This document shows, one piece after another, positions 15,578 through 36,408 of a DNA stretch of 36,408 nt. The stretch covers positions 1 to 36,408 of the forward strand of contig JBEKYR010000050.1 in assembly GCA_049510745.1 (NCBI GenBank), in the 5' to 3' direction. This DNA comes from Verrucomicrobiota bacterium. GTDB lineage: Bacteria; Verrucomicrobiota; Verrucomicrobiia; Limisphaerales; Palsa-1400. The notes beneath the pieces were generated by a model, which saw nothing but the letters and a program-made list of their open reading frames with translations, made no database searches and was not told the origin of the DNA. The stretch's first letter is position 1; each line of letters starts with the position of its first letter. A program made the position numbers and the translations under genes.

Positions 15578-15612
15578 TGCACAATTCCTCAAATAAGTTG
15601 AGGATATGTGCA
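15578..15612. promoter_or_regulatory. Inverted-repeat operator of the abiE operon
   Basis: TGCACAATTCCTCAA-N5-TTGAGGATATGTGCA (13/15 symmetric). It overlaps a TTGCAC -35-like hexamer and the GAGGA RBS. Confidence 0.65.
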
Positions 15613-17062: not shown

Positions 17063-17066
17063 ATTT

Positions 17067-17705: not shown

Positions 17706-17988
17706 GTCTGGGTGGCGGCCTGGACAGTATGAGGTTGCTGGGTTTCCTTCTCGGCACGCTTCTTGGCAACCCGGGCTGTAGCTTGAGCGCGGCGCTGGGC
17801 ACAAAAAGCCTGCCGCTGTTCAGGGCTCATGTTGGCGTAATAGGCCCTCCGAGCGGCACTCATCTTCGCGCTAATCGTTTTCCGCTTTTCTGGGGTCCAA
17901 TTGGCTCTGCTTTGCCTGGCCTTTTCATTCATTGCCGCCGCCCACTGCTTCACCTGTTCAGGGCTTCGGCTCAGGCTTTCGAGGTGCC
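17702..17988 (-). pseudogene. 3' part of a basic helical protein truncated by the IS
   Basis: SPEQVKQW...WTPEKRKTISAKMSAARRAYYANMSPEQRQAF (NUMOD3-like repeats). The stop overlaps the integrase-remnant ATG, and the 5' part runs into the IS end. Confidence 0.45.
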
Positions 17989-19264: not shown

Positions 19265-19433
19265 GCGGTCCCACACCAGCGGTAATTGGCCGCGCATCGA
19301 GACTGGTTAGCACTGCCGCAGCTTCTCCAATACGGGTACGGAGTCCGGGTGCGGCAGGGGGGTGGCGATGCGCCGATACTTGGTATCGACGCGCGGGACG
19401 TTTTTTGGGGGTGATGTCGAATTCCTGGCCCAT
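19265..19433 (-). pseudogene. 5' fragment of a class III aminotransferase, paralogue of 26456-27874
   Basis: MGQEFDITPK/NVPRVDTKYRRIATPLPHPDSVPVLEKLRQC*PVSMRGQLPLVWDR. Frameshift in the homopolymer at 19401-19406, stop at 19307-19309, cut exactly at the IS end. Confidence 0.9.
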
Positions 19434-19434
19434 G

Positions 19435-20718
19435 TTAAATGGCTTTCTCGTAAATGCGCGCGAAGACCTTTTCCGATCCTTCGCTCGCGCGGTTGGGGTC
19501 GATGATCGTGATGCCGTCGGGGCCAAAGCGCGCGGTGACAGGCGCGCCAAGGTTGCTTTGGGTGTATTTGAAATTCAGGTCGCGCACCAGAGCCGCCGCA
19601 TGCACGATAGCCACCGTCAGCCGCGCGTCCTCGGCGGTGGGATAAAGCGCCGCCAGTTCGTCGCGGCCGATGTCGAAGAACTTGCGTCGGCATATCGCCG
19701 CCAGACCCGCCGTCAAACTGTCCACCCCGTAGCCGACGCACGTCTTGCTGCCGTCGGGGCGGGCGGTATGGCGGCTGAAATGAGTGTTGACAGTGCGGCT
19801 GCCGCCGTCCTTGTGCCAGAAGCGCAACCCGCGGTATTGCTGATCGCTCTCCACCTTCCCGTCCGTGCCGACGATTTCGTGCCCCTGGTTGACCAGTCCC
19901 TCGAAATCCGGCGGCGTGATCCAATTATTGTGAAAGTGGATGCTCATGCCGTTGGCAAAATCGACCCGCACCTGCACTGCGTCGTAAGCCTGGATGCCAT
20001 CCCTGGCCAGCCGCTTCTTTTGGCCCACAGCCGTCAGCGAAACCGGTTTGCTGCGGTAGTAATGCCAGATGAGATCGACCCAATGCGGGCCGACATAACT
20101 GAACGGATCGCTGTGCGTCGCCCACTTGAATGTGCTGGTCGAAACTTCCAGCGGCTCCTCCAAATAGGCCACGCCGTACAAAGGCTCCCCGATCCGGTTC
20201 TTGAGTTCATCGCGAATCCGCAGATGGTCCGGGTCGTACCGTTTGTGCATATCGACGGCGACGATCAGGCTTTTCCCCCTCGCCAACTCCACAATCTGGT
20301 CCGCCTCGTGGATGGAAAGGCACATCGGCTTTTCCGTGATGACATGAGCGCCCCGCTGCAACGCCGCCAGGATGACCGGCGTATGCAGATGGTCGGGCGT
20401 CGCCACCGCCACGACATCCAGGTCTGGCCCATCGCGCAAAACATCCATCCACGGCTCCGCGCCGGAGTAGGGCCGGGGCCGATGGCCAGTCCATTGCTGG
20501 AAGGCGTCGCAGGCGCGCTTGGCGGAGGATTCCGACCGGGCCGCCACCGCCGCCAACTCGAACGCCACCGGCGCCAAATCGCGTCCCCAATGGTCCAAGC
20601 CGATGCGCCCCAATTGCGGCGCCAGGCCGGAGCACTGCAAATCCGCGTAAGCACGCAGATGGACATCTGCGCCGAACATGCCGGCGCCAATCAAGGCGAT
20701 TTTGATTTTACCTTCCAT
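19435..20718 (-). CDS. Gfo/Idh/MocA family NAD(P)-dependent oxidoreductase
   Basis: IALIGAGMFG, VATPDHLH, HVITEKPM, GPHWVD motifs. Confidence 0.92.
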   Translation of the reverse strand: MEGKIKIALIGAGMFGADVHLRAYADLQCSGLAPQLGRIGLDHWGRDLAPVAFELAAVAARSESSAKRACDAFQQWTGHRPRPYSGAEPWMDVLRDGPDLDVVAVATPDHLHTPVILAALQRGAHVITEKPMCLSIHEADQIVELARGKSLIVAVDMHKRYDPDHLRIRDELKNRIGEPLYGVAYLEEPLEVSTSTFKWATHSDPFSYVGPHWVDLIWHYYRSKPVSLTAVGQKKRLARDGIQAYDAVQVRVDFANGMSIHFHNNWITPPDFEGLVNQGHEIVGTDGKVESDQQYRGLRFWHKDGGSRTVNTHFSRHTARPDGSKTCVGYGVDSLTAGLAAICRRKFFDIGRDELAALYPTAEDARLTVAIVHAAALVRDLNFKYTQSNLGAPVTARFGPDGITIIDPNRASEGSEKVFARIYEKAI

Positions 20719-20852
20719 TGGGTCTTAAAAGGTCATCTGACTTTATTACCACGAAAGGCGCGCAAAGCAAGAGGGAAAAAGCCATCTGCCCGGTTTGCGG
20801 CGATCTTGTTCCGACTTGGTGGTCTTCGTAGTCTTTATTAGTTCCGGCGATT

Positions 20853-21630
20853 AAAACCGGGCGAGGAAGGGAACTGCCGATTCCGAATCATGTGTTGGCT
20901 GCGTTACGGAACTATTTCAAAAACGGCCGGCCCAAAGACAAAGGGTTTGATCATCTGTTTTTGCGGCATCCGAACCGGTGTGGACATCCGCTCTCCAGCG
21001 GGGCTTTAAAACAGATGGTGCAGCGCGCTTATCGTCGTTGCAGATTTCCCAAATCGTGGTCGGGCACCCACCGATTACGACACACCTTTGCCACGCGCTT
21101 GCATCGCAGTGGAGCGGACTTGAAGCCGATTGCTGACTTGCTTGGCCATCGTAAGCTTGACTCAACCACGATCTATACAAGCTTTGCCGATCAGACGGCT
21201 CCGGGTCAGCCGCTCACCATCAAACTGGCGACGTTATGGGCGATTCGCCGTCCGGCCTTGCCGGTGACCGTGGCTAATCGTCTCAGCGCGATTCGGGGTT
21301 TCGCTCGTTATTGTGCCTCTTTTGATCCCCGCACACAGATTCTGCCGAGTCATCTGACTCACGGTGTCGGACGACGGCGTGCTCCGCACATTTTCACCGA
21401 AGCCCAAGTCCGGCTAACCTGCGCCGCACCCGTGCGCTTGGCCCCTGGCGCACCAACTTGCGGCCTCTGACTTACCGCACGTTCATTGGGTTGCTCGCTT
21501 GCACAGGACTTCGCCTTTGTGAAGCCCGGCGGCTGCGGGATGAGCATTTTGACCCAACAGCCAAAACGCTTCGGGTTCCGGCTGTCAAATGCAGTCCGGG
21601 CCGGACCATCCCGCTGCATCCCTCGACGGT
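20853..21630 (+). mobile_element. Collapsed RIT (recombinase-in-trio) remnant: RitA C-terminus fused to RitB fragments
   Basis: KTGRGRELP...GTHRLRHTFATRL...IADLLGH...STTIYT joins in frame at about 21180 to RitB-like PLTIKLATLWA...RLSAIRGFARY...RRAPHIFT. A frameshift follows, then TFIGLLACTGLRLCEA...K...RTIPLHPST. Confidence 0.8.
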
Positions 21631-22472: not shown

Positions 22473-23282
22473 ATGCGCAACACGCCGTGTTTTGAAATTG
22501 ATTTGGGCCAGCGCCCCAAGATTGTCGAGGTGGAACTCTGTCGGCATGGCTCCCGATCAGCGGAGTCATTCCGCTTGTACGGCTTGTGGAGTCTGCACGC
22601 CTATCATTATCGGGGGGAATTCTGCTTGAACGGCAAGAGCTTTCCGTTCAAGGCGGGCTGCGTGAGCCTGATTCCTCCCGAAACACTTGTGGAATGGCGC
22701 TTTCCCACAGACGCGCCTCACTACTACGCCCATTTCGAGATGGAATCTTCAGGCGGTATCCGCGTTGAACTTCCGTTGCTGCAAGACCTTGGCGAGGACT
22801 TCGACCTCTTTTGCGGGCAATTCGAGCAATTGATCCACTTCCAGACGTTTGATCCGGAACGAGCGAGGATTCGGCTTTGGGATATGCTTTATCAGCTAAA
22901 AGGCAAATCCGCTACGGTCCCATCCACTCAGCGGTTGCATCCCAGCCTGCAAATCGCCTTGGGCACCATCCGCAACCGACAGTCGGAAAACATACATGTG
23001 GGACGAATCGCCCGGTCCATGGGCGTCTCGCATAACCACCTGACCCATCTGTTTCTGCGGTATCTGGGGTGCGGCGCGCGGGAATGCATTCAGCGCGAGC
23101 GGTTGAAACACGCGTGTCATTTGCTCGCGCATTCGTCCCTCTCCATCAAATCCGTCGCCATCGCCACGGGCATCCCGGATTTGCATTACTGTAACAAGTT
23201 GGTTCACAAAGCCACGGGTGAATCACCCCGTGACTACCGGCGCAACCGATCGCGGACGGATCTTCTCAGAGAACCGAAGTGA
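22473..23282 (+). CDS. AraC family transcriptional regulator
   Basis: Cupin-like N-terminus. IARSMGVSHNHLTHLF and LSIKSVAIATG...TGESPRDYR double HTH. Confidence 0.88.
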   Translation: MRNTPCFEIDLGQRPKIVEVELCRHGSRSAESFRLYGLWSLHAYHYRGEFCLNGKSFPFKAGCVSLIPPETLVEWRFPTDAPHYYAHFEMESSGGIRVELPLLQDLGEDFDLFCGQFEQLIHFQTFDPERARIRLWDMLYQLKGKSATVPSTQRLHPSLQIALGTIRNRQSENIHVGRIARSMGVSHNHLTHLFLRYLGCGARECIQRERLKHACHLLAHSSLSIKSVAIATGIPDLHYCNKLVHKATGESPRDYRRNRSRTDLLREPK

Positions 23283-23307
23283 GATTATCCGGAGAAAACA
23301 GATACAA

Positions 23308-25299
23308 ATGAAACACAAAGCAGCCGGAATCCTGCTTTCCCTTCTGACAGCCATGGCGTTTGCCGGGGACACCAACGCTCCGGCACTCATTCCACTGCCT
23401 GAAAAGATGGATTGTCGCGAAGGGGTGTTCAGAGTCCGGCCGGAAACGCGAATTCTGGTGGATTCCACCGCAGAACAGAGCGGCCAATATCTCGCCGAAC
23501 GACTCGCCAAATCCATCGGTTACAAGTTCAAGGTAGTCCCCAGTTCGAAAGATCGGGCGGCCAAAGGAAACATTTTGTTGACCATCGAGAACGCCAAGGA
23601 GAGCTGTGGCGCCGAAGGCTACGAATTGACAGTCGCCCCGGATTCGGTGGTCATTCGGGCATCGGAGCCGGCGGGTTTGTTCTACGGCGGGCAAACATTG
23701 CTGCAACTGCTGCCGCCGGAAGTGTTGGCCGCCAAGCCCGTTTTGAATGTGGATTGGACACTTCCATGCGTGCAGATCCAGGATCAACCGAGGTTCAAAT
23801 GGCGCGGGTTGATGCTGGATGTGAGCCGTCACTTTCTCACCAAAGAGGAAGTCGAGCGAATGCTGGACGTGATGGCGCTGCATAAATTGAATGTATTCCA
23901 TTGGCACTTGGTTGATGACCAGGGTTGGCGGATTGAGATCAAGAAATACCCGCGTTTGACGCAGGTCGGGGCCTGGCGCAAGGACATCGGTTTTGGCTTG
24001 GATCCGAAAGCCGGCACGGCTTACGGTCCTGACGGACGATACGGAGGTTACTACACACAAGTTGATATGCGTGAGGTGGTGGCCTATGCCGAGGCCAGGC
24101 ACATAGCCGTCGTGCCGGAGATTGAGATGCCCGGGCATTCGATTGCGGCGCTCATGGCCTATCCTGAATACAGTTGCACCGGCGGGCCGTTTAGCACCGA
24201 CGTCAACGCCGGAGTTTTCAACGGCATTTATTGCGCGGGCAACGAGGAGACGTTTAAATTCCTGCAGGACGTTCTAACGGAAGTGTTCCAGCTTTTTCCC
24301 GGCAAATACATCCACATCGGCGGTGACGAAGTGCCGAAGGATACTTGGAAGCATTGCCCAAAGTGCCAGGCGCGCGTCAAGGCTGAAGGATTGAAGAACG
24401 AGGAGGCATTACAGAGCTATTTCATCCGGCGCATCGAAAGATTCGCCAATGCACATGGGCGCAGGCTCATCGGCTGGAGCGAGATCCTCCAAGGCGGCCT
24501 GACCCAAAACGCCACGGTCATGGATTGGATAGGCGGGGCGGTGGAGGCGGCACGCGGCGGACACGATGTCGTGATGTCACCCCACGAGTCTTGCTACTTC
24601 TGCTATTATCCCTCTCTGGACCGCCCGCCACAACTGCGCGCCTATCGCCCTTATTTGCCGTTAAGCCAAGTGTATGCTTTTGAGCCGATTCCGGCGACTC
24701 TGGATCCACGGGACGGCTCGCACATCCTCGGCGCGGAAGCCTGCGTCTGGACCGTGGACATTCCCAACATGCAAGAGGTCGAGGAGATGACCTTCCCGCG
24801 CCTGTGCGCCTTGGCGGAAGTTGTCTGGTCGCCTAAATCATCGCGCAACGGGGATGATTTTACCCGCCGCCTGAATGTTCAGTACCGCCGCCTTGACCAA
24901 TGCGGCGTCAGTTGCTGGATGGACAGGGCGGCGGAGATTGGAGAGTGGAAACCCGCCCAGATTGCCGCTCAAGGCAGTCTGTTGGAGTGGGACGCGACCC
25001 AAAACATTTTTGCTCCCGGCAAACACCGATTGAGCATGAATTACACAAAGGGCAGGAATGGTCTCAAAATCGACTGGGTTGCGCTGTTGGAGGACGGTCA
25101 TGAAATCGTCCGGGACACGCATGTCGGCTTCACAGGCACGAGTTCACCAAAGAGCATGAAAGCCCACGATTGGAATTACTTTTTCAATCTGCCTGAGTTC
25201 AAGAAAGGCGCGCGATACACGGTTCAGGCCTTTGTGACAGGCGACGGAGGGAATGATTCCAGCGGCGTTGTCTTTTTGGAACCCAAACCGGCCCAGTAA
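23308..25299 (+). CDS. Secreted beta-N-acetylhexosaminidase (GH20) with C-terminal beta domain
   Basis: Signal peptide, DQPRFKWRGLMLDVSRHF, HWHLVDDQGWR, PEIEMPGH, catalytic HIGGDE. Confidence 0.95.
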   Translation: MKHKAAGILLSLLTAMAFAGDTNAPALIPLPEKMDCREGVFRVRPETRILVDSTAEQSGQYLAERLAKSIGYKFKVVPSSKDRAAKGNILLTIENAKESCGAEGYELTVAPDSVVIRASEPAGLFYGGQTLLQLLPPEVLAAKPVLNVDWTLPCVQIQDQPRFKWRGLMLDVSRHFLTKEEVERMLDVMALHKLNVFHWHLVDDQGWRIEIKKYPRLTQVGAWRKDIGFGLDPKAGTAYGPDGRYGGYYTQVDMREVVAYAEARHIAVVPEIEMPGHSIAALMAYPEYSCTGGPFSTDVNAGVFNGIYCAGNEETFKFLQDVLTEVFQLFPGKYIHIGGDEVPKDTWKHCPKCQARVKAEGLKNEEALQSYFIRRIERFANAHGRRLIGWSEILQGGLTQNATVMDWIGGAVEAARGGHDVVMSPHESCYFCYYPSLDRPPQLRAYRPYLPLSQVYAFEPIPATLDPRDGSHILGAEACVWTVDIPNMQEVEEMTFPRLCALAEVVWSPKSSRNGDDFTRRLNVQYRRLDQCGVSCWMDRAAEIGEWKPAQIAAQGSLLEWDATQNIFAPGKHRLSMNYTKGRNGLKIDWVALLEDGHEIVRDTHVGFTGTSSPKSMKAHDWNYFFNLPEFKKGARYTVQAFVTGDGGNDSSGVVFLEPKPAQ

Positions 25300-25420: not shown

Positions 25421-25482
25421 TCGGTTTGCGTTTTCACTTTGCTACAGGTGAAACTTCCAGCAAGCTGCAAATAGTCACCGGT

Positions 25483-26352
25483 ATGAAACCCGCCTTTGAA
25501 AGAACTCCCCAGCAGCGGTGGGAATCCTTCTCCTGCGAGGTCGTGCATCGTTCGAGCTATAACGCCATGTGGCACTTCCACCCGGAATATCAAATCACGC
25601 TCGTGCTCAAGAGCAGCGGCTATCGGCTGGTCGGCGACAAAATCACGCCGTTGCGACCGGGCGACCTTGTGCTGGTCGGCTCGAATCTCCCGCACGTCTG
25701 GCGCCAGGACGAGCGATGTGGCCGCTCACGTTCTGCGGTTCACGCCATCGTGGTGCGTTTCCTCGACACGTTTCTGGGCCGCGATTTTTTGGAAGTTCCC
25801 GAGGTCAGGCCGGTGCGCCGATTGTTAAAGCGCGCCAGACGCGGATTGCAGGTCACTGGCCGGACGCGTGACACCGTCGCCGCCAAACTGGAGCGGTTGC
25901 CCGGCAGCCGGGGCCTCGAACGAGTGGCCGGACTGCTTTCCATCCTCGGAACTCTCGCGCGCTCGCAGGAACTGATGCCCATCTCCAGTCCGGGATTTGT
26001 GCCCATTCTGTCCAGCGACGACCAAGACCGCGTCGAACGCGTGATTGCCTTTATTGATGCGCGCTTCGCCGGCCCGATTTGCCGCGCGGCGGTCGCCGCC
26101 GAGGCCCACCTTAGTGTCGGCGCCTTCAGCCGTTTTTTCAAACTCCGCCTCGGCAAGACGCTGCCGCAGTACATCAACGAATTGCGCGTGGGCCGCGCCT
26201 GCCTCTTGCTGGCCCAAGAGCAATTGAAGATAACCGATATCGCCCTGCAGTCCGGCTTTCACAACGTCGCCAACTTTAACCGCCGCTTCCACGACATCAC
26301 AAAGCTGACCCCGCGGGAGTATCGGCGGCAGTTGCAGCGAAGTGCTTTGTAG
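25483..26352 (+). CDS. AraC family transcriptional regulator
   Basis: WHFHPEYQITL, GDLVLVGSNLPHVW, AFSRFFK, ALQSGFHNVANFNRRF..TPREYR. Confidence 0.93.
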   Translation: MKPAFERTPQQRWESFSCEVVHRSSYNAMWHFHPEYQITLVLKSSGYRLVGDKITPLRPGDLVLVGSNLPHVWRQDERCGRSRSAVHAIVVRFLDTFLGRDFLEVPEVRPVRRLLKRARRGLQVTGRTRDTVAAKLERLPGSRGLERVAGLLSILGTLARSQELMPISSPGFVPILSSDDQDRVERVIAFIDARFAGPICRAAVAAEAHLSVGAFSRFFKLRLGKTLPQYINELRVGRACLLLAQEQLKITDIALQSGFHNVANFNRRFHDITKLTPREYRRQLQRSAL

Positions 26353-26455
26353 AGTGCGGACGAGAATTGGCCGGCAATCCCACCGGGCACAAAAGTATCA
26401 TAATCAGTCACTAAATAAGAAGTATTTGGCGGGCTGGTGCTGTTAGCTGATGAAT

Positions 26456-27874
26456 ATGGGCAAAGAATTCAGCATCGTCCCGCGCGAAGTGACGCGGGTG
26501 GAAACCAAATATCGCCGCATTGTCACCCCATTGCCGCATCCCGATTCGTTGGCGGCGCTGGAGAAGTTGCGCCGGTTTGAGCCGCAATCCATGCGCGGCC
26601 AATTGCCGCTGGTGTGGGACCGCGCCGAGGGGATATTTGTTTACGACAAGCACGGGAATCGCTGGCTGGACTGGTCCAGCGGCGTGCTGGTGACCAACGT
26701 TGGCCACGCCGCGCCAGAGATTTGCCAGGCCATCATTGATCAGGTGAACAGCCGCTTGTTGCACAACTACTGTTTCCCCAGCGAAGAGCGCGCGCAGTTA
26801 GTTGAGTGTCTTGCAAGTGTCGCGCCGGAAGGGTTGAAGAAGGTTTTTCTCCTCAGCACCGGTTCGGAGGCCGCCGAATGCGCCATCAAGCTCGCCCGCG
26901 GCCACGGAATCAAGGTGGGCGGCAGGCAGAAAATCGGCATTGTCGGCTTCGAGCGTGGTTTTCATGGACGCACGCTTGGCTCGCAGCAGGCTGGAGGGAT
27001 GGACGGACAGAAATCCTGGATTGTTAATCTCGACCCTGCCTTCATCCATGCGCCCTTTTCGGATGGATATTGGCAGCAAGATACGCGTTTTGACACGTTC
27101 CTGGAAGCCATCGTGCGCGCCGGGTTCAAGCCGGAAAACATTGCCGGCGTGATAATGGAGACTTACCAAGGCGTCGGGCCGGAATTCGCGCCGATGGAAT
27201 ACGTTCGTCGGTTGGCCGCGTGGTGCCAACAACATGACGTGGTGCTGGTTTTCGATGAGGTCCAGGCGGGCTTTGGCCGCACCGGCAAATTCTGGGCCTT
27301 CGAGCATTACGGCGTGGTTCCCGACCTCATCTGCTGCGGCAAGGGTATCAGCAGCTCATTGCCGCTTTCGGCCGTGATTGGCCGGGAATCCATCATGGAT
27401 GAATTCGGCCCAGGTTCCATGACCAGCACGCACACGGGCAATCCGGTATGCTGTGCCGCCGCTCTGGCCAGCGTGAAAAAAATTGTGGACGAGAAGCTGG
27501 TCTCCAACGCCGCCAGGCTCGAACCGGTGTTGCTCGCCGGCCTGAAGAGGATCCAGTCGAAGCACCCCGAGGTCATCGGCCATGTCACCGCGCGCGGTCT
27601 CGTTGGCGGCCTGCAAACCGTCAAGCGCGGCAAAAGGGAACCGGATCCTGATCTGGCGCACAACATCATCGAACGCTGCTTTCATAAAGGTCTGCTTTTC
27701 TTTGCTCCAGTGGGCGCATGGGGACAGACCGTAAAGATTGGCCCGCCCCTGATCATTCCGCAAGATGCGCTGGAGGAAGGCCTGGACGTGCTAAATGAAG
27801 CTACGGATGAGGCGGTTGCTGCTCTGCAACAATCCCAATCGCTGTCCGGGAAAATTGTTTGCGGAAGGCCATAA
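26456..27874 (+). CDS. Class III PLP aminotransferase (GabT/ArgD-like)
   Basis: DWSSGVLVTNVGH, STGSEA, FHGRT, FDEVQAGFGRTG, GKGISS (PLP Lys), THTGNP. Start chosen by homology to the fragment at 19433 (alternative 26450). Confidence 0.93.
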   Translation: MGKEFSIVPREVTRVETKYRRIVTPLPHPDSLAALEKLRRFEPQSMRGQLPLVWDRAEGIFVYDKHGNRWLDWSSGVLVTNVGHAAPEICQAIIDQVNSRLLHNYCFPSEERAQLVECLASVAPEGLKKVFLLSTGSEAAECAIKLARGHGIKVGGRQKIGIVGFERGFHGRTLGSQQAGGMDGQKSWIVNLDPAFIHAPFSDGYWQQDTRFDTFLEAIVRAGFKPENIAGVIMETYQGVGPEFAPMEYVRRLAAWCQQHDVVLVFDEVQAGFGRTGKFWAFEHYGVVPDLICCGKGISSSLPLSAVIGRESIMDEFGPGSMTSTHTGNPVCCAAALASVKKIVDEKLVSNAARLEPVLLAGLKRIQSKHPEVIGHVTARGLVGGLQTVKRGKREPDPDLAHNIIERCFHKGLLFFAPVGAWGQTVKIGPPLIIPQDALEEGLDVLNEATDEAVAALQQSQSLSGKIVCGRP

Positions 27875-27942
27875 AACATGTCTCCGCGTTTGTTTGGAGA
27901 GCGTGAGTTTGCGGGACCTTAACTTCCGCTGCCGCGCCACAC

Positions 27943-29196
27943 ATGAAAATCAAGGGTTTGCGCTGGTATATCATGGGGCTAATTTGCCTGACCACCGCGC
28001 TTAACTATATGGATCGGCAGACCTTGGCGTTGCTGGCCCATACACTGGAAAGGGAGTTGGGCATTACGACCCTCCAGTATTCCCACATTACAGCAGCTTT
28101 TTTGACGAGTTACACGATCATGTATGCCGTGAGCGGACGGTTGATCGACTATCTTGGTTCCCGCCGCGGGCTGGCCATTTTTGTTTCCGGGTGGTCTATA
28201 GTTGACGTAATGCACTCGTTTGCGCGCAACGTGTGGCAGTTCATGTTTTGCCGCTTTATGCTCGGGGCGGCTGAACCGGCCAATTTCCCGGCGGGGGTCA
28301 AAGTGGTTTCGGAATGGTTTCCGATGCGCGAGCGGGCGCTGGCGGTCGGAATCTTCAACTCGGGCACAGCCGTCGGAGCGGCCTTGGCGGCTCCGATGGT
28401 GGCCTGGGTTGTATTACATTTTGGATGGCAGTATTCATTCGCCGTCGGCGCCGTGATGGGCGTCACCTGGGTCGTCTTTTGGTCGTTCATTTATCGGCTG
28501 CCCCGGCAGCATCCGTGCATAACGGCGGAGGAACTCAGGCTCATCGAGGACAACCAGCCGCCGAAGGCGGCGCCCAAGAGCGTTTCCACCCTGCGGATAC
28601 TCCAAATGCGTGAAACGTGGGGGTGCATTTTGGCGCGGATGCTGACGGACCCAATTTCGAATTTCTTTGCTTTCTGGATGCCGAAATTCCTACAGCAAGA
28701 GCGGGGGTTCGATTTGGCCGCCATTGCCAGATACTACTGGATCCCCTATGCGGGTCTGGCCGTTGGCAACCTCGCTGGCGGCGCCATTCCAAACTACATG
28801 ATCAGGCAGGGCTGGTCACTTGACCGATCGCGCAAAACGATGATGTTCATAGCGTCAATTATGATACCGGTCTGCTTCATTCTCATTACCCGCGTGCCCA
28901 ATCCCGCGATGGCGATTGTATGCATTACCATTGCGATGTTCTTCCATGCGGCATGGGCCAATATGACTTTGCCGACGGAAGTCTTCGAGAAGCACGTCGT
29001 CGGCTCGGTCACGGGCTTCGGAGGAGCGGCGGGCTCGCTGGTTAGCGCGGTAACGATGTTGGTCATCGGCAGAACGGTGACGGTTTCCTCGTTCACGCCG
29101 GTCTTCGTCATTTACTCGGCACTGCCCTTGACGGCTTTTGTAATCGTTTGCATACTGGTCAAGAAACTCGGCTGTGTGCGCGAGGTTCCCGTCTGA
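27943..29196 (+). CDS. MFS transporter, ExuT/ACS-like
   Basis: LRWYI, NYMDRQTL, SGRLIDYLGSRRG, SEWFPMRERALAVGIFNSG. Confidence 0.92.
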   Translation: MKIKGLRWYIMGLICLTTALNYMDRQTLALLAHTLERELGITTLQYSHITAAFLTSYTIMYAVSGRLIDYLGSRRGLAIFVSGWSIVDVMHSFARNVWQFMFCRFMLGAAEPANFPAGVKVVSEWFPMRERALAVGIFNSGTAVGAALAAPMVAWVVLHFGWQYSFAVGAVMGVTWVVFWSFIYRLPRQHPCITAEELRLIEDNQPPKAAPKSVSTLRILQMRETWGCILARMLTDPISNFFAFWMPKFLQQERGFDLAAIARYYWIPYAGLAVGNLAGGAIPNYMIRQGWSLDRSRKTMMFIASIMIPVCFILITRVPNPAMAIVCITIAMFFHAAWANMTLPTEVFEKHVVGSVTGFGGAAGSLVSAVTMLVIGRTVTVSSFTPVFVIYSALPLTAFVIVCILVKKLGCVREVPV

Positions 29197-29231
29197 GTCC
29201 CTGATAATTTGATCAACTGATAGTCAAGAAT

Positions 29232-30365
29232 ATGCGTCAGCGCAACCCTTCAAAGCGGGCAAGAAACCAAAATCGGACGCGGGAATCCACGCCGCGGCGG
29301 CCAACCGCTTCAAATCGCGCTGTAACGTCGCCCATCATTCGGGAAATCCTGGCCCGCATCCGGACGGCCAGCTTTCAACACTATTTGAAAAAGCTGCTGG
29401 TTGAGTTGTGCCGGATAGACACCACCCCCAGCTCGGTTGTGGAAAAAATGCGCCTGGCCGAAGACGGCTGCTTCCAGATTCTCGAACGGGAATTGGGTGC
29501 GCTGAATTTTTCCGGCGCACGCCTGGAACGCCGCCCGATTAACCCCGCCATCAAAACGCATCCCAATTATTCCCTGCTGCACTTCACGAAAACCCCGGAG
29601 CGGCCGCAAGGACTTTCGACGGAAGAAACCTACGCCAACCGTTCCAATCTGCTCTGCATGCTTCCCGGAGCAGTCAAGAGCAGCACCGGTCAATCCGTTG
29701 CGATCAACGCGCACGTGGATGTTGTCGCGCCATATTTTCCGCCGCGTGTGAAAGGCGGCATGGTGTACGGATGCGGCGCCTGCGATGATAAAAGTTCGGT
29801 GGTCAGCATGGTGGCCGCTCTCAAAGTGCTTTCGGAAGTAATGGCCAAAGCCGGGTTGAAATGGAACCGGAACGTGCTGGCCATGTTTGTCGTTGAAGAG
29901 GAAACCGGCGGAAATGGTTCGCTTTCCCTCGCCATGGATCGCGATTTGAAGCGATTCTATGACTCCATTCTCGTTGGGGAATGCACGGGATTGAAGTTCC
30001 ATCCAGCCAATCGGGGCGCGGTATGGTACCGGGCTGATCTGACGGTGCCGACCGGAGTATCCCCCGTCGAAATGTTTGCCTTTGTCAACGAAGAGATGGA
30101 GAAGGAGGGCGCGGCCGTTCACGCCGAAAGCCGGCACATATTTTTTCCCCAACGCCCGGTCCAGACCTGCCACGGCATCATTGGTTCGTTTGGTGAGCAT
30201 CCCAGCCGTATTTGCGGCGAAGTCAGCTTTTTGGTTCAATCCGAGCGCCGCCCTGATGAGCCAACTGAAAACTTGGTGCGCGATTGTCTGGAGGCGGGGT
30301 TGGCGAGTTACATGGTTGCTGGCCAATATTGTCAACTGGTGGCAAGTGGCATCAAAAGAAGCTGA
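29232..30365 (+). pseudogene. M20 family metallopeptidase/deacylase, probably C-terminally truncated
   Basis: NAHVDVV, GACDDK, VEEETGG, GE metal ligands. YGCGA replaces the usual YGRGA, and no C-terminal G..x.AH ligand segment is present. Composition shifts after about 30310. Confidence 0.7.
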
Positions 30366-30521
30366 AAAAATCACTTGGTTTGACTGGTCGCGCCAACCTA
30401 TGGGAAAAGCGGCATGAAACGAAGCGTTCCTAAAAAGCGCCGTTCTTCAACAGTCTCTTGGCGCGAAAAACGTGTGAGTCCTGGGTCAGTGCCGAATGGC
30501 GCTCACATAAGACCTGATCTT

Positions 30522-30648
30522 GAGAAACAAGCGGTTGAGTCCGGGTTCCTCAATCGCAGCCTGCGCCACCAGCATGTGTCCGAGGTGAACCGGGTCGCAC
30601 GAACCCGTCCACGATTCCGATGCGTTGCCTGGCACGGGCGTGACTCAT
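30522..30648 (-). pseudogene. nadD: 5' fragment of nicotinate-nucleotide adenylyltransferase
   Basis: MSHARARQRIGIVDG/SCDPVHLGHMLVAQAAIEEPGLNRLF with one frameshift. Matches RIG..GGSFDPVHxGH. Confidence 0.75.
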
Positions 30649-30652
30649 CCGG

Positions 30653-30703
30653 TCACGGTTTGAGATGTCGGTCGGCGAAATTGAGATACTGCTCCCAGTC
30701 GTA
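30653..30703 (-). pseudogene. C-terminal 16 codons of a CE15-like carbohydrate esterase
   Basis: YDWEQYLNFADRHLKP* resembles the DW..YL.FAD.H terminal helix of CE15-type esterases. Confidence 0.55.
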
Positions 30704-30708
30704 AACAT

Positions 30709-30885
30709 AATTCCGGCGTCAAGATGATGAACATTTACGAAATCCAGGTCTACGTCAGTTACGGCAAAGCGGCCCTAGACAAGGAGGACTGTGGCGCCAT
30801 TTACAGTGAGACGGCTCCCTCGGTGAACGCCTGCAAGAAGCCCGGCGAATGGCAGAAGCTGGTGATTGATTTCCGCGCGGCGCGA
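30709..30885 (+). pseudogene. Internal fragment of a DUF1080 (3-keto-disaccharide hydrolase) protein
   Basis: NSGVKMMNIYEIQV...CGAIYS...NACKKPGEWQKLVIDFRAAR. Confidence 0.8.
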
Positions 30886-30937
30886 CCTGCAACGGGCCGG
30901 CTTCCTCCAGATGCAAGGACCCCTTTGGGAGCATCCA

Positions 30938-32305
30938 TTAAATCTGCTGCACAGGGCCAGAATCGCCGGCCTTGGAATTGCGGACCAGCGATAAAACGAG
31001 GACCATCGCGGCTAACGGCACAAGACTGGCGACAATCAGAATTGGCTCGAACGAATAGTGGTCCGAGACATAGCCAACGAGAAAAGTGGACAGGATTGTT
31101 CCGAGGCCCGCGCCCGTACCTGCCATACCGCTAACGGTGGCAACTGACCGGCTCGGGAAAAGGTCGGATGGCAAAACTAGCATGATCGTCGCGAAGGCCG
31201 CGTATGCGAAGGTTGAAAACCCAAACAGCGCCGCCAAGACCAACGGATTTGAAGTGAAGACCGTGCCGGCTAAAAGACATGTGCCGAACCCGCCGAACAC
31301 GATCACGGCTTTGCGGGCTCTGCCGACAGGCCATCCACGCCGTATCAGCCAGCTAGACACGCCGCCGCCGAAGAAATTGCCCAGATCAGCGGCAATGAAA
31401 GGAATCCAGTAGACGAGCACCCCCTGCTCCAACCGCACACCCTTTGCCACCAGATATATCGCAAACCAGTCAGCGATGAAGAACCAGATGGGGTCGGTGA
31501 ACGAACGACCGGCAATGATCCCCCAGGTTTGCGGCAGCCTCAGCAATTGCGTCCAGCGAATCACCGGGCCCTGCGCAGTCGTTCGGTTTTGCTCATCCTT
31601 TTCGTCCAGGATCATCCTTTTCTCGGATTCGCGGAGCCTCGGATGGCTTTCCGGAGGATAATAAAGCAGGCGCCAGAAGACCAACCACAAAAGACCCAAC
31701 GTGCCGGTGAAGACGAAGGCGAGTCTCCATCCGCCGAAGGTGTGGTACAGCCAGAGAATCAGGAACGGTGCGATCGCCGCGCCGACCGAGGAACCGCTGT
31801 CGAACAGAGCCACGGCCCAACCGCGTTCGCGTTTGGGAAACCACTCCGCCACAGCTTTGGCGGCGCCCGGCCAATTGGCCGATTCTCCCGCGCCCAACAG
31901 AAACCGAAACGCGCAGAAGCTGCGCAAGCCATTGGCAAACGACGTGCATATAGCCACGACGGAGTAGAAGAGGACCGTGAGCGTCAGCCCTTTGCGGGTG
32001 CCAATGCGGTCCAAAAAACGGCCAGACAGGGTTTGTCCGATGGAGTAGGCGATACGGAAGAATATAACGATCCACGCGAAGTCGGCGTTGGTCCAATGGT
32101 AATCACTCTTCAGATATGGCGCGAGCACCGACAACGTCTGTCGGTCGATGTAATTGATGGCGGTAGAAAGAAAGAGCAGGCCGCCGATCCACCACCGCAA
32201 GGATGGAAGCGTCCTGACCCGGCCTTGTGGAGACGCGGCACACGTCTTCCGTCCTTCGACAGGTTCAGGAGGGTGATGGGTTTGGAAGGCCATACTGTGG
32301 TTCAA
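30938..32305 (-). CDS. MFS transporter, ExuT/ACS-like
   Basis: [48 protein letters not shown]. 4-bp overlap with the nagB-like gene. Confidence 0.92.
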
Positions 32306-33087
32306 ATCACGTCTGCCAATCTCTCGGGCGCCAGCAGACTCGCGGAGTTCCGGTCGAGAAAAAGATGCGCCCGGGGATGTTTCCGCAGGATTGTGGCCGG
32401 GCAGGCAGTGCTGATGGGATCACACAGTGTATTCAGCACGGCCTTCGCCTTACGCCGATCGGGAACCACACAGCTAAGGACCTTGGAATTCATGATCGCG
32501 GGGATGGTCAAACTCAGCGCATGGATGGGCACTTCGTCGAGACTGCGGAACCATCCTTCGCCTAATTGTTGACGGCGGCACGCCTCATCAAGTTCGACGA
32601 CCTTGACCAGGCGCCGATCGTCGAAATCGGCGACCGCAGGATCATTGAATGCGATGTGTCCGTTTTCTCCGATGCCGATGCAGGCGACGTCGATGTGGGC
32701 GGATTTCAAGAGGTTTTCATATCGGAGCGTTTCCTTCCCGATGTCTTTGGCGTCGCCGGCCAAAAAATGGATCTTTGCCGGACGCACCTCATCAAGAACC
32801 CGCTCGCGTAAATATCTCCGGAAACTCGCGGGATGGCGCTCGGACATCCCTCTATATTCGTCCAAATGAAAAACGGTGATCTTTCCCCAGTCCACCGAAC
32901 GATCCTTCTTGAACGCGTCCAAAAAAGTGAATTGAGAGGCGCCTGTGGCCAGGATCAGGCTAGCGGCTCCGTTTTTCTGCACTGCCGAAGCAAGTTCGGC
33001 GGCGACGAAATCGGATGCGGCGCAGCCCAGCAAGCGGTCGGTATGATAGACTTCGACGAACAGTGAGTCGGACTTGAAGCAACTCAT
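32302..33087 (-). CDS. nagB: Glucosamine-6-phosphate deaminase/isomerase family protein
   Basis: [45 protein letters not shown]. Confidence 0.88.
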
Positions 33088-33121
33088 AACATAAGAAATT
33101 TCTTGTTGTTGATACTCCCCA

Positions 33122-34285
33122 TCAATCGCCGAATTCCTGCCACGCGTCCCGGATGTGCTTCAGCGTCTCCCACGGCGCATCAATAGCGGTGTTGCAGCTT
33201 GCAGACAAAATGAAACGGCGGGCCAACGGTCGCAGACGGTCGAGGAGACCGCGCATGTAGGCGAAGACCTGCTCGCGCGTGCGCAGTTCGCGGGTCTGGA
33301 ATGCACTGATGCCACCTGTGATCATGAAGCGATCACTGGTCAACCGCAGCGCCTCGTCGAGTTCCACGTCGCCGAGGGGCGGAAAGGCCACGCCCTCCAG
33401 GCCATCCACGCCGAGCGAATCAATCAGGCGCAAGTTGGCGCGCTGCCGTCCGCACGCATGGATGAAAAACGTGCTGCCGTGATCGTGGGCAATGGAACTG
33501 GCTTTTTGGTAGAACGACGCCGAGAACTTCTCAATGTAAGCGGGCGTGTGAAAGGCGGTGTCGAGATTGTCCATGGCCATCATCGCCGGCACGCCGGCGG
33601 CGGCGATCTGGCGCGCAAGGTCGAGTTGCGCCGCCTCGTGGAGCGCCAGCAGTTCTCGCACACGCGCCTCGTCGTCGGCTATGAGATAGCTCGCGTTGAC
33701 CGCCCCGGCCAGGAGATGCAGCGCCTTGAGCGGGCTAAACAACTCGCCCGCCACCACCAAGCCATCGTCACCGAGGCGAGCCTGTTCCCGCGCGTATCGC
33801 TCCGGCCGAAAGCGCCAGCGGCGCGCCCGCAGCAATTCTTCAATGGCCCCCAACGGATCCGCCGCGTCATCCAGCGCGAAGGCTTCCTGCACCAGCGTGG
33901 AGCCGTTCCAGACATAGCGCAGCCGTTCGGTCAGCGTGCCGCGCCGGGTATCATAGGTTCTGAAGATGACGCGGTCGCGTCCCTCCATGCGGACTTCCTC
34001 GCGCGCCTCGATGCCGTCCCAAATCTCTTCGGCTAAACCGCCGAACCAGCAATGCTGCTGGTCGCAGTAGATGTTCCGGCTGAAGACATCCAGTCCCAAA
34101 TGGCGGATAAGATCGAGTTGTGACCGGCAGTGCGCGATCTCCGGCGGCAGCAGACCGTGGTTCTGCTGGTGCGCGAACCATTGCCAGTAGTTCGGCGCAT
34201 AGACGATGCGGTCAGAGCGTTGCCGGTTCAATAATCGCCGCAAGCGCTCGCGAGCCGTTACGTTGGGAAGATGGGTGGTCATCAT
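33122..34285 (-). CDS. UroD/MtaA-CmuA fold protein, candidate Zn-dependent MT2 methyltransferase
   Basis: N-terminal TARERL...DR, FFIHACG (HxC), ITGGI and FILSASC (distal Cys), the ligand pattern of MtaA-type enzymes. Confidence 0.8.
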   Translation of the reverse strand: MMTTHLPNVTARERLRRLLNRQRSDRIVYAPNYWQWFAHQQNHGLLPPEIAHCRSQLDLIRHLGLDVFSRNIYCDQQHCWFGGLAEEIWDGIEAREEVRMEGRDRVIFRTYDTRRGTLTERLRYVWNGSTLVQEAFALDDAADPLGAIEELLRARRWRFRPERYAREQARLGDDGLVVAGELFSPLKALHLLAGAVNASYLIADDEARVRELLALHEAAQLDLARQIAAAGVPAMMAMDNLDTAFHTPAYIEKFSASFYQKASSIAHDHGSTFFIHACGRQRANLRLIDSLGVDGLEGVAFPPLGDVELDEALRLTSDRFMITGGISAFQTRELRTREQVFAYMRGLLDRLRPLARRFILSASCNTAIDAPWETLKHIRDAWQEFGD

Positions 34286-34297
34286 TGTGTATCCTCT

Positions 34298-34549
34298 TTA
34301 GTCAAAGCCGAGTTCCACAATCGCGGCCTGCGCCATCGCCATCAAAAAGTATCCGAGGTAATGCGCAAATTGCACCCAGGCGGATTGTGCTTTGCTCAGA
34401 CCCAACTCGGTCTGAAAATGCTTGTCCGTCACATCAATCATGCCGTTGCAAACGGCCCACAGGAAAAACAGCGAACTGAGGAGAGCAAACGTGAAGATCA
34501 AACTCCTGCCGTCATCCATTTCAAACATGCCCTTGTTGTTGGATTTCAT
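34298..34549 (-). pseudogene. FucP-family sugar permease N-terminus, truncated or fused
   Basis: FALLSSLFFLWAVCNGMIDV.DKHFQ.ELGLSKAQSAWVQFAHYLGYFLMA matches FucP TM1-2, followed by an unrelated 12-aa tail. Confidence 0.85.
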
Positions 34550-34660
34550 AGATCAATGGGATTAGAGGCCGTTGCCGATATCAAAAATGCGGTGAGATTT
34601 CATTTGATTCGTTGGTTGCGTTTACCGATTTGCCACGCTGATGGCAATCTCAAAATCAAT

Positions 34661-36024
34661 TCAGGTTTCAAACCTCAAACCATATTCCTCCGGCAGGAAA
34701 TGCGCATGATCGGCCAGCGCCAATTGCCGGGCGATGAATTCCGATTCGCTTTCCGGCAATTCATCCAGCGTCTCTTGCATGCTGTCGAACCAGATCAGCT
34801 CGTTGGGCGCGACCCGTAACTTGCCTCCGGCGTGCGCGCTGCGCAGCAACTCCACCGCCTTGCGCGCCACGGCCGCACCGGCGTGATAGTGCGTGTCGCT
34901 GCCCACTATGACCCGGGCATGATGAACGCCTGCGGATCCGTGGCCACGTCGGACTCCACCAGCCAACGCTGGAGCTGCCGGGCGGACTCACGCCCGTGCG
35001 AGCGGGCGGTGTTCATCAACCGGCAATCGTAGATGAGTTGTTCCATGTAACAGGTCGGCGCCATGCCGCCGAGCAACTTGATGTTTTGCACCGACTCGTT
35101 GGACCAAGTGTCGCAGCACGCCGCCGCGACGTTGCCCATGGGACTCAAGTGCGCGCAGGCGGAAGTCTTGCCTTCCATCGCCATCGGACAGCCGGTGATG
35201 GCCTTGAGGATCGGGTTTTCATAGCCGCAGTCCTTGCCGGGGCCAACGGCGCCGCACTCGTAAGCGACGAGGGATCGAACCGCGCTCACCGCGCGCACCA
35301 CGGCGGCGAACACCCGCGGAATCATCTTCTGCTCGGCCAGCACCATCGCGGTGTTGCCAAAACCGCAGGCGGTGTCGCCCGCGCACTTGACACCATGTTG
35401 GCCGGCGATCTTTTGGAGGTGTGTCCAGAGAAAGCGCATGTCGCGCTCGCCGAGGATGCAGAGAGAAAAGAGACTCGCTGCCAGGTCGCCGTTGACCAGC
35501 GCCTCGTCGTGCAATTCCTTGCCGCCGACGGATTCGATGCTTAACAACTCCGCTCCAGCCGCCGCCGAGCCTTCGAACAACTCCAGCATCGCGTCCCAGT
35601 AACGGCCGCGGCGCATCAACGGGGGGCGTTCGAACTCGCGGTTGTCGTTGGGCGTCATGCGCAGCGCGCTCTTTAAACCGCTGCGGTCTTTCTCCCGCTT
35701 CAGGCCTTCGAGCAAGACCTTGAGGATGTCCAAACCCCATGCCGGATGCTCGGTCATCGGCGGCAGGGTCTCGAATTCGATGACGACGCCGGGCGCTTCC
35801 AGCTCCGCCGCCCGGCGCAGCGCGCCCTGGATAATCTGTTCATAGTTGCGCCGCACTTCGGGCATGGCGCCGGCGTCAATACTTATCGGCGGCAGCGTGA
35901 AGTTGAGTTCCGGATAAACTGTGCCGCCGCCAATCACCATCCCGCTGCGCGTGGTGACGGGTTTCGGCGCAACGCCGAAGATCAGGTCAGCCGGATCAGG
36001 GATGGCCAAAGATTTGAAGCGCAT
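34661..36024 (-). pseudogene. mtaB: MtaB-like methanol:corrinoid methyltransferase, frameshifted near 34910
   Basis: IGGGTVYPELNF, VIEFETLP, SIESVGGKE, GDTACGFGNTA, GPGKDCGYEN, EGKTSACAH, DTWSNESV, YDCRLMN, DPQAF. The C-terminal ~80 aa continue in another frame (IVGSDTHY...FLPEEYGL). Confidence 0.88.
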
Positions 36025-36039
36025 TGTCGTGGCGTTCCA

Positions 36040-36408
36040 TCAAACCTTGCCTTGCAACAGCGCCAGGGCCGCGTCCACCGCGCTGCCCGCGTCCGGGGCA
36101 TAGCCGTCCGCGCCGATTTCGCGGGCAAACTCCTGCGTGATGGGCGCCCCGCCGATCATCACCTTGACCTCCAGGCCGGCTTCGCGGATGGCCTTCACCG
36201 TCTCGCCCATCGCGGGCATCGTCGTGGTCAGCAACGCTGATAAACCCACCAGCTTGGGCTGGTGTTCTTTGACAGCCTCGACGAACTTCATCGGCGGCAC
36301 GTTGACGCCCAGATCAATGACTTCGATGTTGGCCCCCTTCCACATCATGGCGACAAGGTTCTTGCCAATGTCGTGCAGGTCGCCTTCCACCGTCCCGATG
36401 ACCGCGCT
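36040..36408 (-). CDS. mtaC: Corrinoid (B12-binding) protein, MtaC-like, 5'-truncated by the window
   Basis: GTVEGDLHDIGKNLV (DxHxxG), GLSALLTTTM, MIGGAP, IGADGY. Frame is open to the window end. Confidence 0.92.
   Translation of the reverse strand, partial: SAVIGTVEGDLHDIGKNLVAMMWKGANIEVIDLGVNVPPMKFVEAVKEHQPKLVGLSALLTTTMPAMGETVKAIREAGLEVKVMIGGAPITQEFAREIGADGYAPDAGSAVDAALALLQGKV

Follow-up and report, generated by a model that had tools for sequence, protein, structure and literature searches.

At one end of a contig from a Verrucomicrobiota genome, corrinoid methyltransferase genes stand in a run with sugar-uptake genes, and our analysis suggests that two of them, mtaC and mtaB, are one of two copies of a mobile module that would plug into a genome-wide cobalamin methyl hub. 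We lean towards a reading in which enzymes of the UroD fold demethylate sugars onto a corrinoid protein, homocysteine (Hcy) accepts the methyl group, and MtaB exchanges it with methanol. The stretch analysed, which we call the window, is a whole contig (C50, 36,408 nucleotides) of genome G000 (5.6 Mb, 94% complete); contigs of this genome carry C-numbers, fetched loci L-numbers, comparison genomes other G-numbers, and sequencing runs the labels X1-X3. An earlier sequence-only reading had described six co-oriented minus-strand frames at window positions 30938-36408, and all six are present, with their families upheld by Pfam and NCBIfam searches that include matches to the MtaB (PF12176), B12-binding (PF02310) and URO-D (PF01208) domains. 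The host is a Limisphaerales-like peat Verrucomicrobium that degrades plant polysaccharides. All 20 listed runs containing the window stretch are peat or wetland metagenomes, and the nearest MtaB relatives (88-93% identity) come from Limisphaerales / Verrucomicrobia subdivision 3, plus some Acidobacteriota.

We compared 20 genomes of the window's MtaB clade, four of them assigned to it by 67-74% identity only, with 14 genomes that carry the RACo activator and no MtaB and with 20 that lack RACo. Carriers of other MtaB clades (G330, G238, G340, G226, G289, G344, G338, G299, G284, G149, G071) or of partial mtaB genes (G311, G331) were excluded from the first set, and G035 (RACo-negative, 82% complete) was dropped from later control sets. 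MtaB is found in 22 of 350 genomes of the phylum and in 6 of 30 family members. RACo is present in 20/20 MtaB-clade genomes and in all 33 MtaB carriers of the unreduced set, two of which have AcsB. PF01208 genes other than HemE occur in every MtaB-clade genome and every RACo-positive, MtaB-negative genome (20/20 and 14/14) and in none of the 20 without RACo; PF01208 copies number a median of 7 in MtaB carriers versus 3 in RACo-positive genomes lacking MtaB (nominal p 0.003, kin not being independent) and 0-1 in RACo-negative genomes. A second, stand-alone homocysteine S-methyltransferase (PF02574) is found in 18/20, 14/14 and 0/20 genomes of the three sets, one of the 18 genes being a 517-aa frame, and these hub tallies overstate significance in that kin are counted as independent. 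Its three zinc cysteines (NC...CC) are invariant in 14/14 aligned sequences, and in G000 it lies at C28:30006-30962, separate from full MetH. The genes expected of corrinoid-dependent homocysteine methylation by a split MetH or MtgBCD-like hub are in place, as a zinc-cysteine Hcy module co-occurs with a corrinoid protein and an activator. The sequence-only reading had left the methyl acceptor blank; a stand-alone Hcy methyltransferase with all three zinc cysteines tracks the corrinoid system, and the acceptor is probably homocysteine.

UroD-fold proteins, the corrinoid protein, RACo and the Hcy methyltransferase form the core of this system, with MtaB as an add-on. Because the hub is present without MtaB, and because clusters fetched from MtaB-negative genomes held no donor other than UroD-fold proteins, the latter are the likely donors. 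Alignment of 75 UroD-fold proteins encoded near mtaB resolved about a dozen deep lineages (counted from the tree) with the metal motifs HxC..H, HxD..H, HxC..C and DxD..H. Such diverse partners beside a nearly invariant MtaB give the pattern of variable, substrate-specific donors on a constant core.

Gene neighbourhoods were drawn from the top 80 of 202 genomic loci that carry window-type MtaB, from a second sample of 20 mtaB loci spread evenly over the phylum (four of them duplicate rows of the best 80), and, for the window's own UroD-fold protein, UroD-W, from 80 metagenome loci. The six-gene order is local and the association of corrinoid with sugar genes is widespread. The corrinoid trio had been taken for a fixed unit in a conserved sugar operon, a claim that does not survive: orthologues of the nagB, major facilitator superfamily (MFS) and fucP genes are absent from all 80 mtaB loci, and UroD-W is present at one (L051). 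A conserved six-gene operon is ruled out by these loci and the 80 UroD-W loci, and the window's NagB-like gene and fucP remnant are local additions or passengers. The genes that do recur near mtaB in the 80 loci are mtaC (58), UroD-fold (48), AraC (44), RACo (30), DUF1638 (29) and homocysteine S-methyltransferase (20), together with sugar porters, SSS and ABC sugar transporters, glycoside hydrolase (GH) families GH2/36/78/29/4/5/28, aldose epimerase and galactokinase. The corrinoid-sugar linkage proposed for the window extends well past it, corrinoid and sugar or uronate genes being linked across Verrucomicrobiota, Planctomycetota and Acidobacteriota, and an upstream RACE/ASKHA-type activator, for which a search had been suggested, is found as RACo upstream of one mtaC copy (on C14). 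Corrinoid clusters at 8 of the 80 mtaB loci and at L277 also contain a desaturase-Rieske-NAD-binding fusion, and five loci contain PhyH dioxygenases (the loci with either are L010, L022, L024, L031, L034, L042, L048, L064 and L277); these are possibly oxygen-dependent demethylases for the same substrates.

UroD-W is a candidate substrate-specific methyltransferase of sugar-acid loci. Its neighbours across 80 loci are ExuT-type MFS transporters (31), a GH of about 900 aa (20), UxuA (9), RraA aldolase (6), GH88 (4), nagB-like genes (3), a corrinoid protein (3) and mtaB (1), and uronate-type neighbours occur in 30 of the 46 loci of at least 6 kb. It adjoins corrinoid-system genes in L051, L277, L140, L157 and L160, and in G017 a co-oriented run that includes RACo and DUF1638 lies upstream of it. 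Five of 58 genomes have UroD-W; all five carry window-type MtaB, and three of the five were not selected for MtaB. Homologues at E<=1e-30 number 776, and the H276-x-C278...C364 site is invariant in 46/46 orthologues. The AlphaFold model (pLDDT 91.9) best matches MtaA (4AY7/4AY8, TM 0.60-0.68, 16% identity); a PDB sequence search with UroD-W returned no real match, and against the MtaA_Meth profile it scores 25.7 (cut-off 400). A 916-aa protein of G000 (C10:141103-143853; L095:12759-15506), of a type that adjoins UroD-W in 20/80 loci, has no Pfam match and a GH67N/GH20b-like architecture. Its best fold matches are GH115 and GH138 (TM about 0.3 on a pLDDT-74 model), and it probably represents an unclassified glycoside hydrolase family.

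G000 has two further UroD-fold genes, on C14 and C10. The C10 gene lies in a xylan locus, divergently oriented from the only GH115 gene of the genome. Among 16 loci with C10-type UroD, five have a glucuronidase within about 9 kb, GH115 in four (G000, G001, G030, G249) and GH67 in one (G837); GH67 is unrelated to GH115, and its locus comes from a second phylum, that of G571. Enzymes described as acting on 4-O-methylglucuronate occur in each of the two families (PDB titles; PMC8056927). Several other C10-type loci are flanked by UxuA, ExuT-type MFS, FAH, enolase-superfamily or IlvD/EDD genes, and close orthologues sit in a cassette with a corrinoid protein, RACo and the Hcy methyltransferase, sometimes with a pair of MeTr-like and MetF-like genes. 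The metal site of the C10 type is H-N-D...G. UroD O-demethylases are described as having one or both zinc cysteines replaced by a carboxylate or a non-ligand (PMC10418091), a rule that fits the C10 type and does not fit the His-Cys-Cys site of UroD-W. Judged from motif and gene context, the C10-type UroD is our best candidate for a 4-O-methylglucuronate demethylase. Its cassettes (L180, L182-L187, L192, L269-L271) also contain two conserved proteins of about 108 aa and about 420 aa with no Pfam match, and a small PF13769-like domain that is either part of the corrinoid protein, as a fusion, or encoded on its own.

MtaB sequences across the 80 loci are 68-93% identical, and together with 9 of the 20 phylum loci and one further protein they form a 90-row clade (FastTree SH 100; SH-aLRT 98 in a 34-row IQ-TREE quick tree) that leaves out Eubacterium, Acetobacterium and methanogen MtaB. 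The grouping of the 80 is partly circular, as they were picked by similarity, and the informative point is that no acetogen is nested among them. The suspicion that this is not an ordinary acetogen system is borne out by the separate clade and by AcsB/CdhC (PF03598), which is found in none of the 20 MtaB-clade genomes and none of 5 additional genomes; the two AcsB-positive MtaB carriers hold MtaB of another clade. The sole PDB sequence match of the window's MtaB is 2I2X of M. barkeri (E 1.6e-87), and its SIES, GDTAC and GKDC motifs each have an aligned counterpart there, at residues that we take to be E164/C220/K267/C269. The zinc-ligand positions (two Cys and one Glu; PMC6257451) and a nearby Lys are invariant in 100/100 loci rows and likewise in 5 acetogens and 2 methanogens. 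Fourteen of the 17 positions examined near the active site are invariant in 107/107 rows, and the GDTAC alanine is present in 98/100 loci and common to acetogens. Because these positions match acetogen MtaB, we expect methanol, rather than a sugar, to be its small substrate; direct demethylation of methyl-sugars by MtaB, as once envisaged, is disfavoured by the same positions.

The assembled mtaB stops at codon 372, 25 bases short relative to L001, L002, L005 and L006, while relatives 92-93% identical carry an intact gene. The missing 25 bases are found at full depth in contigs of 4/4 runs, one of them the possible source run, and the start of contig C31 coincides exactly with the gap, sharing the assembly's standard 122-bp overlap, so mtaB is intact and the gap is an assembly artefact; a pseudogene is ruled out by the reads carrying the 25 bases and by the C31 join. 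The main piece (34906-36024) places residues 2-369 on PF12176 positions 3-369 (E 4.5e-147), and the C-terminal piece (about 34661-34906) covers positions 386-460 (E 9e-7). Depth over mtaC-mtaB rises from 12.3 to 25-29 in X1, with an increase in 4/4 runs, and in the graph C14 and C10 lead into the repeat while C50 and C31 lead out of it; the mtaC-mtaB module is therefore present twice and was collapsed by the assembler. The 5' part of mtaC is on C14, with a second copy on C10, and the window has 122-bp overlaps with the start of C14 and the end of C10. At the C14 entry, mtaC is accompanied by a prepilin-type gene, the UroD-fold gene, DUF1638, RACo and a GH120-like beta-helix protein. Its companions at the C10 entry are a prepilin-type gene and a 916-aa protein without Pfam match. 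Which of them joins the window is answered differently by the fam9 link, which favours C10, and by the layout of L277, which favours C14. The fucP deletion is genuine, as a single ungapped contig covers 30000-34739 in X1, X2 and X3, and the remnant is 55% identical to a C2 paralogue whose open frame is 430 aa long. Repeat joins can be recognised where the end of one contig has a 122-bp match in the interior of another (window 34918; C59 start against C2:1132; C68 end against C12), and small artefactual deletions may occur at other 122-bp repeat joins of this assembly.

In the mechanism that we propose, the UroD-fold zinc enzymes of sugar and uronate loci would act as substrate-specific donors (first methyltransferases, MT1), passing the methyl group of O-methylated sugars, with 4-O-methylglucuronate as the best candidate, to Co(I)-MtaC and freeing the sugar for catabolism without oxygen. 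RACo with DUF1638, whose genes are present, would re-reduce oxidised corrinoid, and the stand-alone Hcy methyltransferase would be the standing acceptor, making methionine (Met) without folate. MtaB would retain its methanol chemistry as a near-equilibrium valve, taking up methanol at about 0.1-1 mM or more and hydrolysing surplus methyl-cobalamin to methanol when sugar demethylation exceeds methionine demand. Sauer and Thauer reportedly found in 1997 that MtaB can also turn methylcobalamin into methanol by hydrolysis, with a dG0' of about +7 kJ/mol. Conversion of methanol to a thioether yields -27.5 kJ/mol. Computed with these constants, the reaction methanol + Hcy -> Met is endergonic as long as methanol does not exceed 10 uM; at 1 mM it becomes favourable, provided that Met/Hcy is no higher than about 60. 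Sugar catabolism would yield far more methyl groups than methionine synthesis needs, so that a second methyl outlet would be required: the MeTr/MetF pair in some genomes and, plausibly, MtaB running in reverse in others.

Taken further, MtaB would be redeployed as a methyl-cobalamin hydrolase that, with UroD-fold demethylases and MtaC, makes up an oxygen-independent B12 ether hydrolase with net methanol release (sugar-O-CH3 + H2O -> sugar-OH + CH3OH) and with the C10-type UroD as the 4-O-methylglucuronate demethylase. We consider this stronger version possible but doubtful. It would be consistent with the larger number of UroD genes in carriers, the lack of a pectinesterase link, a PocR sensor lost from the window's subclade, and the lack of a regulator homologue in G000. 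Against it speak the PocR-AraC genes in 20/80 loci and the many mtaB loci without a UroD gene, and MtaB and the MeTr-like gene show no significant tendency to exclude each other (2/20 versus 4/14, p 0.20). Given this mixed evidence on direction, we describe MtaB as a reversible valve.

Several observations weigh against sugar demethylation with MtaB as such a valve. UroD-fold genes lie near mtaB in only 48/80 top loci and 4/20 phylum-sample loci, and several mtaB genes are found singly, in unrelated surroundings. mtaB adjoins UroD-W in 1/80 mtaB loci and 1/80 UroD-W loci (L099), both from the same species; 11/16 C10-type loci show no GH115 or GH67 within the fetched stretch; and the thermodynamic argument depends on the constants assumed. 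In addition, the His-Cys-Cys site of UroD enzymes has been assigned to S/Se-methyltransferases rather than O-demethylases (PMC10418091), and UroD-W could be an acceptor-side enzyme instead of a donor. Finally, an AraC protein with a PocR-type N-terminal domain is encoded at 20/80 mtaB loci (by a home-made profile), like MtaR of Eubacterium limosum, which is described as methanol-responsive (PMC13602510), and this favours methanol as inducer and substrate. The PocR domain is truncated or lost in the window's subclade, and no homologue of the regulator was found in G000. Among 31 of 48 labelled AraC proteins scanned for sensor domains, 7 have AraC_binding, 4 have PocR and 20 have no sensor match, so a sugar-sensing regulator as a general rule was not found among them. 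As a separate observation, at L045, L046, L050, L054, L059, L062, L063 and L078 mtaB sits among unrelated genes, and the flanks fetched there contain no mtaC.

The PocR-type regulators speak for forward-only methanol salvage, in which MtaB would be an ordinary MT1 under an MtaR-like sensor, MtaC would be methylated from environmental methanol, the Hcy methyltransferase would make methionine, and the sugar genes would be passengers beside an inserted mtaCB. We hold this to be rather unlikely. It agrees with the acetogen-like active site and the 57% identity to Eubacterium/Acetobacterium MtaB, with the Hcy methyltransferase in 18/20 genomes, with mtaCB in many unrelated contexts, and with expression of mtaB by peat Acidobacteriota, interpreted as methanol use (PMC10805028), but it leaves unexplained the confinement of UroD-fold genes to RACo genomes and their expansion in MtaB carriers. 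Full MetH and MetF are already present in G000, the PocR sensor is missing from the window's subclade, and methionine synthesis would run uphill at low methanol. Nor does the methanol appear to come from the host's own pectin de-esterification, as had been suggested: pectinesterase is absent from G000 and is found in 4/20 MtaB-clade, 5/14 RACo-positive, MtaB-negative and 2/20 RACo-negative genomes (p 0.44 for the first two), which gives no link with MtaB. Improbable in our judgement is the trio first proposed, in which methanol would pass via MtaB to MtaC and UroD-W would be an MtaA-like second methyltransferase (MT2) methylating a thiol or sulfide to methanethiol or an S-methyl metabolite. 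The invariant His-Cys-Cys site, the MtaA fold match, the window-type MtaB of all five UroD-W genomes and the location of other His-Cys-Cys UroD types between mtaC and mtaB in several loci all speak for it. UroD-W is, however, under the bar of 25% identity used in PMC10418091, the genes conserved around it serve the transport and catabolism of sugar acids, with no sulfur-metabolism family among the frequent annotated ones, and it cannot be a general MT2 because it is found in only 4/20 MtaB-clade genomes, G000 included.

Acetogen-style methylotrophy, with methanol turned into methyl-tetrahydrofolate (methyl-THF) and exploited as a source of carbon and energy, either through acetyl-CoA synthase or by oxidation via MetF/FolD/Fhs, is highly improbable. 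G000 carries Fhs and MetF, and some related corrinoid clusters contain the MeTr-like and MetF-like pair. The stand-alone pterin-binding MeTr-like gene is nevertheless found in only 2/20 clade genomes (one query, E<1e-30) and is missing from G000, where the pterin-binding proteins are full MetH and the products of two genes that look FolP-like from their sequences; these facts and the 0/20 count for AcsB lead us to reject a Wood-Ljungdahl or THF-acceptor route. G000 has no pyrroloquinoline quinone alcohol dehydrogenase above cut-off. The least probable explanation is a decaying, non-functional remnant of local deletions: the fucP deletion is genuine and the adjoining M20 peptidase looks truncated, yet mtaB is intact in reads and duplicated, and RACo, DUF1638, the Hcy methyltransferase and the three UroD-fold genes of G000 have full-length open frames. 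The table lists the window's gene run and the C10-type UroD.

Table. Features of the gene run in the window and of the C10-type UroD locus of G000
Feature	Position	Strand	Evidence or remark
mtaC 3' part, B12-binding corrinoid protein with DxHxxG	36040..36408	-	PF02310 E 1.9e-29; runs off contig end
mtaB, methanol:corrinoid methyltransferase family	34661..36024	-	PF12176; intact in reads, artefactual 25-bp gap at 34918
Collapsed two-copy repeat, mtaC 3' part and mtaB	34710..36408	.	approximately doubled depth; two entry and two exit contigs
FucP-type MFS remnant, first ~70 of ~430 aa, low GC (0.50)	34298..34549	-	NCBIfam fucP E 1.4e-12
UroD-W, UroD/MtaA-fold, 387 aa, His-Cys-Cys site	33122..34285	-	PF01208 E 5e-9
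NagB/6PGL-like sugar-phosphate enzyme, not equivalog	32302..33087	-	PF01182 E 6e-19
ExuT/D-galactonate-type MFS sugar-acid transporter	30938..32305	-	MFS_1 E 1.5e-60; TIGR00893 E 7e-74
C10-type UroD	C10:54582-55631		xylan locus C10:44305-58955 (L096) with GH115, GH3, GH116, MFS_2, GH10

The NagB-like protein scores below the NCBIfam nagB equivalog cut-off (129.6 versus 236.9 bits), and a promoter and terminator scan of 30300-36408 was at chance level, with 0 promoter-like sites versus 1.8 in shuffles. Converging on the run from the plus strand (25426-30365) are genes for AraC, a class-III aminotransferase, a second ExuT-type MFS and the M20 peptidase, which at 377 aa versus 586 aa in L102 looks truncated. 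Elsewhere the window holds a GH20 hexosaminidase (23218-25299, plus strand) and a small mobile patch (15606-21470) made up of an AbiEi/AbiEii toxin-antitoxin pair (15606-17062), an insertion-sequence-type integrase core (18313-19086) and a phage-integrase fragment (20892-21470). At 1-6756 on the plus strand lies an open-ended protein of more than 2244 aa with NHL/PKD/Ig repeats that continues from C79. In another part of G000 (C4:181715-194945), a MetF-like gene heads a cluster resembling HdrABC-type flavin/Fe-S proteins, as recognised from sequence, which suggests anaerobic electron bifurcation.

Methyl-ether sugars such as the 4-O-methylglucuronate of xylan are abundant, and our literature search found no corrinoid enzyme for their oxygen-free demethylation. 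Our analysis names candidates, the C10-type UroD beside GH115/GH67 and UroD-W beside an ExuT-type transporter and an unclassified GH, with homocysteine as the likely acceptor. Among titles and the starts of abstracts, in a search that left most subscription papers outside, no paper was found that describes this MtaB clade or corrinoid demethylation of sugars. Bacterial mtaB in peat has been interpreted as methanol consumption, and methanol has been proposed as a primary substrate of methylotrophic methanogens there (PMC10805028). The bacterial table of metagenome-assembled genomes in that paper has 44 Pedosphaerales entries and many MtaB BLAST matches, and may already tabulate mtaB in peat Verrucomicrobiota. 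If MtaB runs in reverse, peat and lake Verrucomicrobiota, Planctomycetota and Acidobacteriota would be producers of methanol from methylated hemicellulose and pectin sugars, and surveys that score their mtaB as methanol consumption would have the direction of the flux wrong. The conservative reading, folate-free methionine from methanol or sugar methyl groups, is likewise without a biochemical description for MtaB in the literature found.

The system works like a three-component corrinoid methyltransferase hub and is not methanogen MtaABC, acetogen Mta or a type 1 mlp cluster. Acetogen aryl-ether O-demethylases pass their methyl group to THF. OdmB and VdmB of this kind are UroD-fold zinc enzymes, like the donors in our proposal, and serve as MT1 for an O-methyl ether together with a corrinoid protein and an activator (PMC10418091); their substrates are aromatic ethers, whereas the gene context here suggests aliphatic sugar ethers, with homocysteine or water taking up the methyl group. 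With Methanosarcina MtaABC (MtaBC 2I2X; MtaA 4AY7/4AY8) the likeness lies in the Glu/Cys/Lys/Cys motifs of MtaB, the DxHxxG corrinoid protein and the His-Cys-Cys UroD-fold partner. The differences are the bacterial host and RACo-type activator, an MtaB that scores far under the methanogen equivalog cut-off (372-aa piece scored), shares 35-37% identity with two methanogen MtaBs and lies outside their clade, and a UroD-W that is 16% identical to MtaA and situated in sugar-acid loci. One same-class genome does have an MtaB that groups with methanogen sequences (L234; G330:C3:442340-445020), adjoining a 1093-aa frame that contains RACo, by transfer or contamination.

The acetogen mta operon of Eubacterium limosum and Acetobacterium woodii, described as MtaR-MtaC-MtaB with a pterin-binding MT2 (PMC13602510), resembles the window locus in MtaB (57% identity over 369 aa), in active-site positions including GDTAC, and in the PocR-AraC regulator of 20/80 relatives; it differs in that MtaB here forms a separate clade, acetyl-CoA synthase is absent, the THF-type MT2 is rare and the PocR sensor is lost in the window's subclade. 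Type 1 mlp clusters (Kountz and Balskus, PMC10418091) likewise combine UroD-superfamily and corrinoid proteins with Ram/RACE, without a THF methylase, in non-methanogens, but are described as having at least two Mlps more than 25% identical to coenzyme M methyltransferases, serving Se/S metabolism, mostly in Firmicutes. By that definition Mlps, corrinoid protein and Ram are co-oriented within 2 kb, whereas the window has one UroD, 16% identical to MtaA, or at most two if C14 lies upstream; a term search of the paper's main text returned no MtaB-containing cluster and no mention of sugar or Verrucomicrobia. In the glycine-betaine demethylase and split methionine synthase MtgBCD of Ruegeria pomeroyi (PMC12478193), as in our proposal, a shared corrinoid protein joins demethylation with methionine synthesis in a heterotroph. 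The donors here would be MtaB and UroD-fold proteins of glycan loci instead of a betaine methyltransferase, the activator is an ATP-dependent RACo, and a full MetH is kept alongside.

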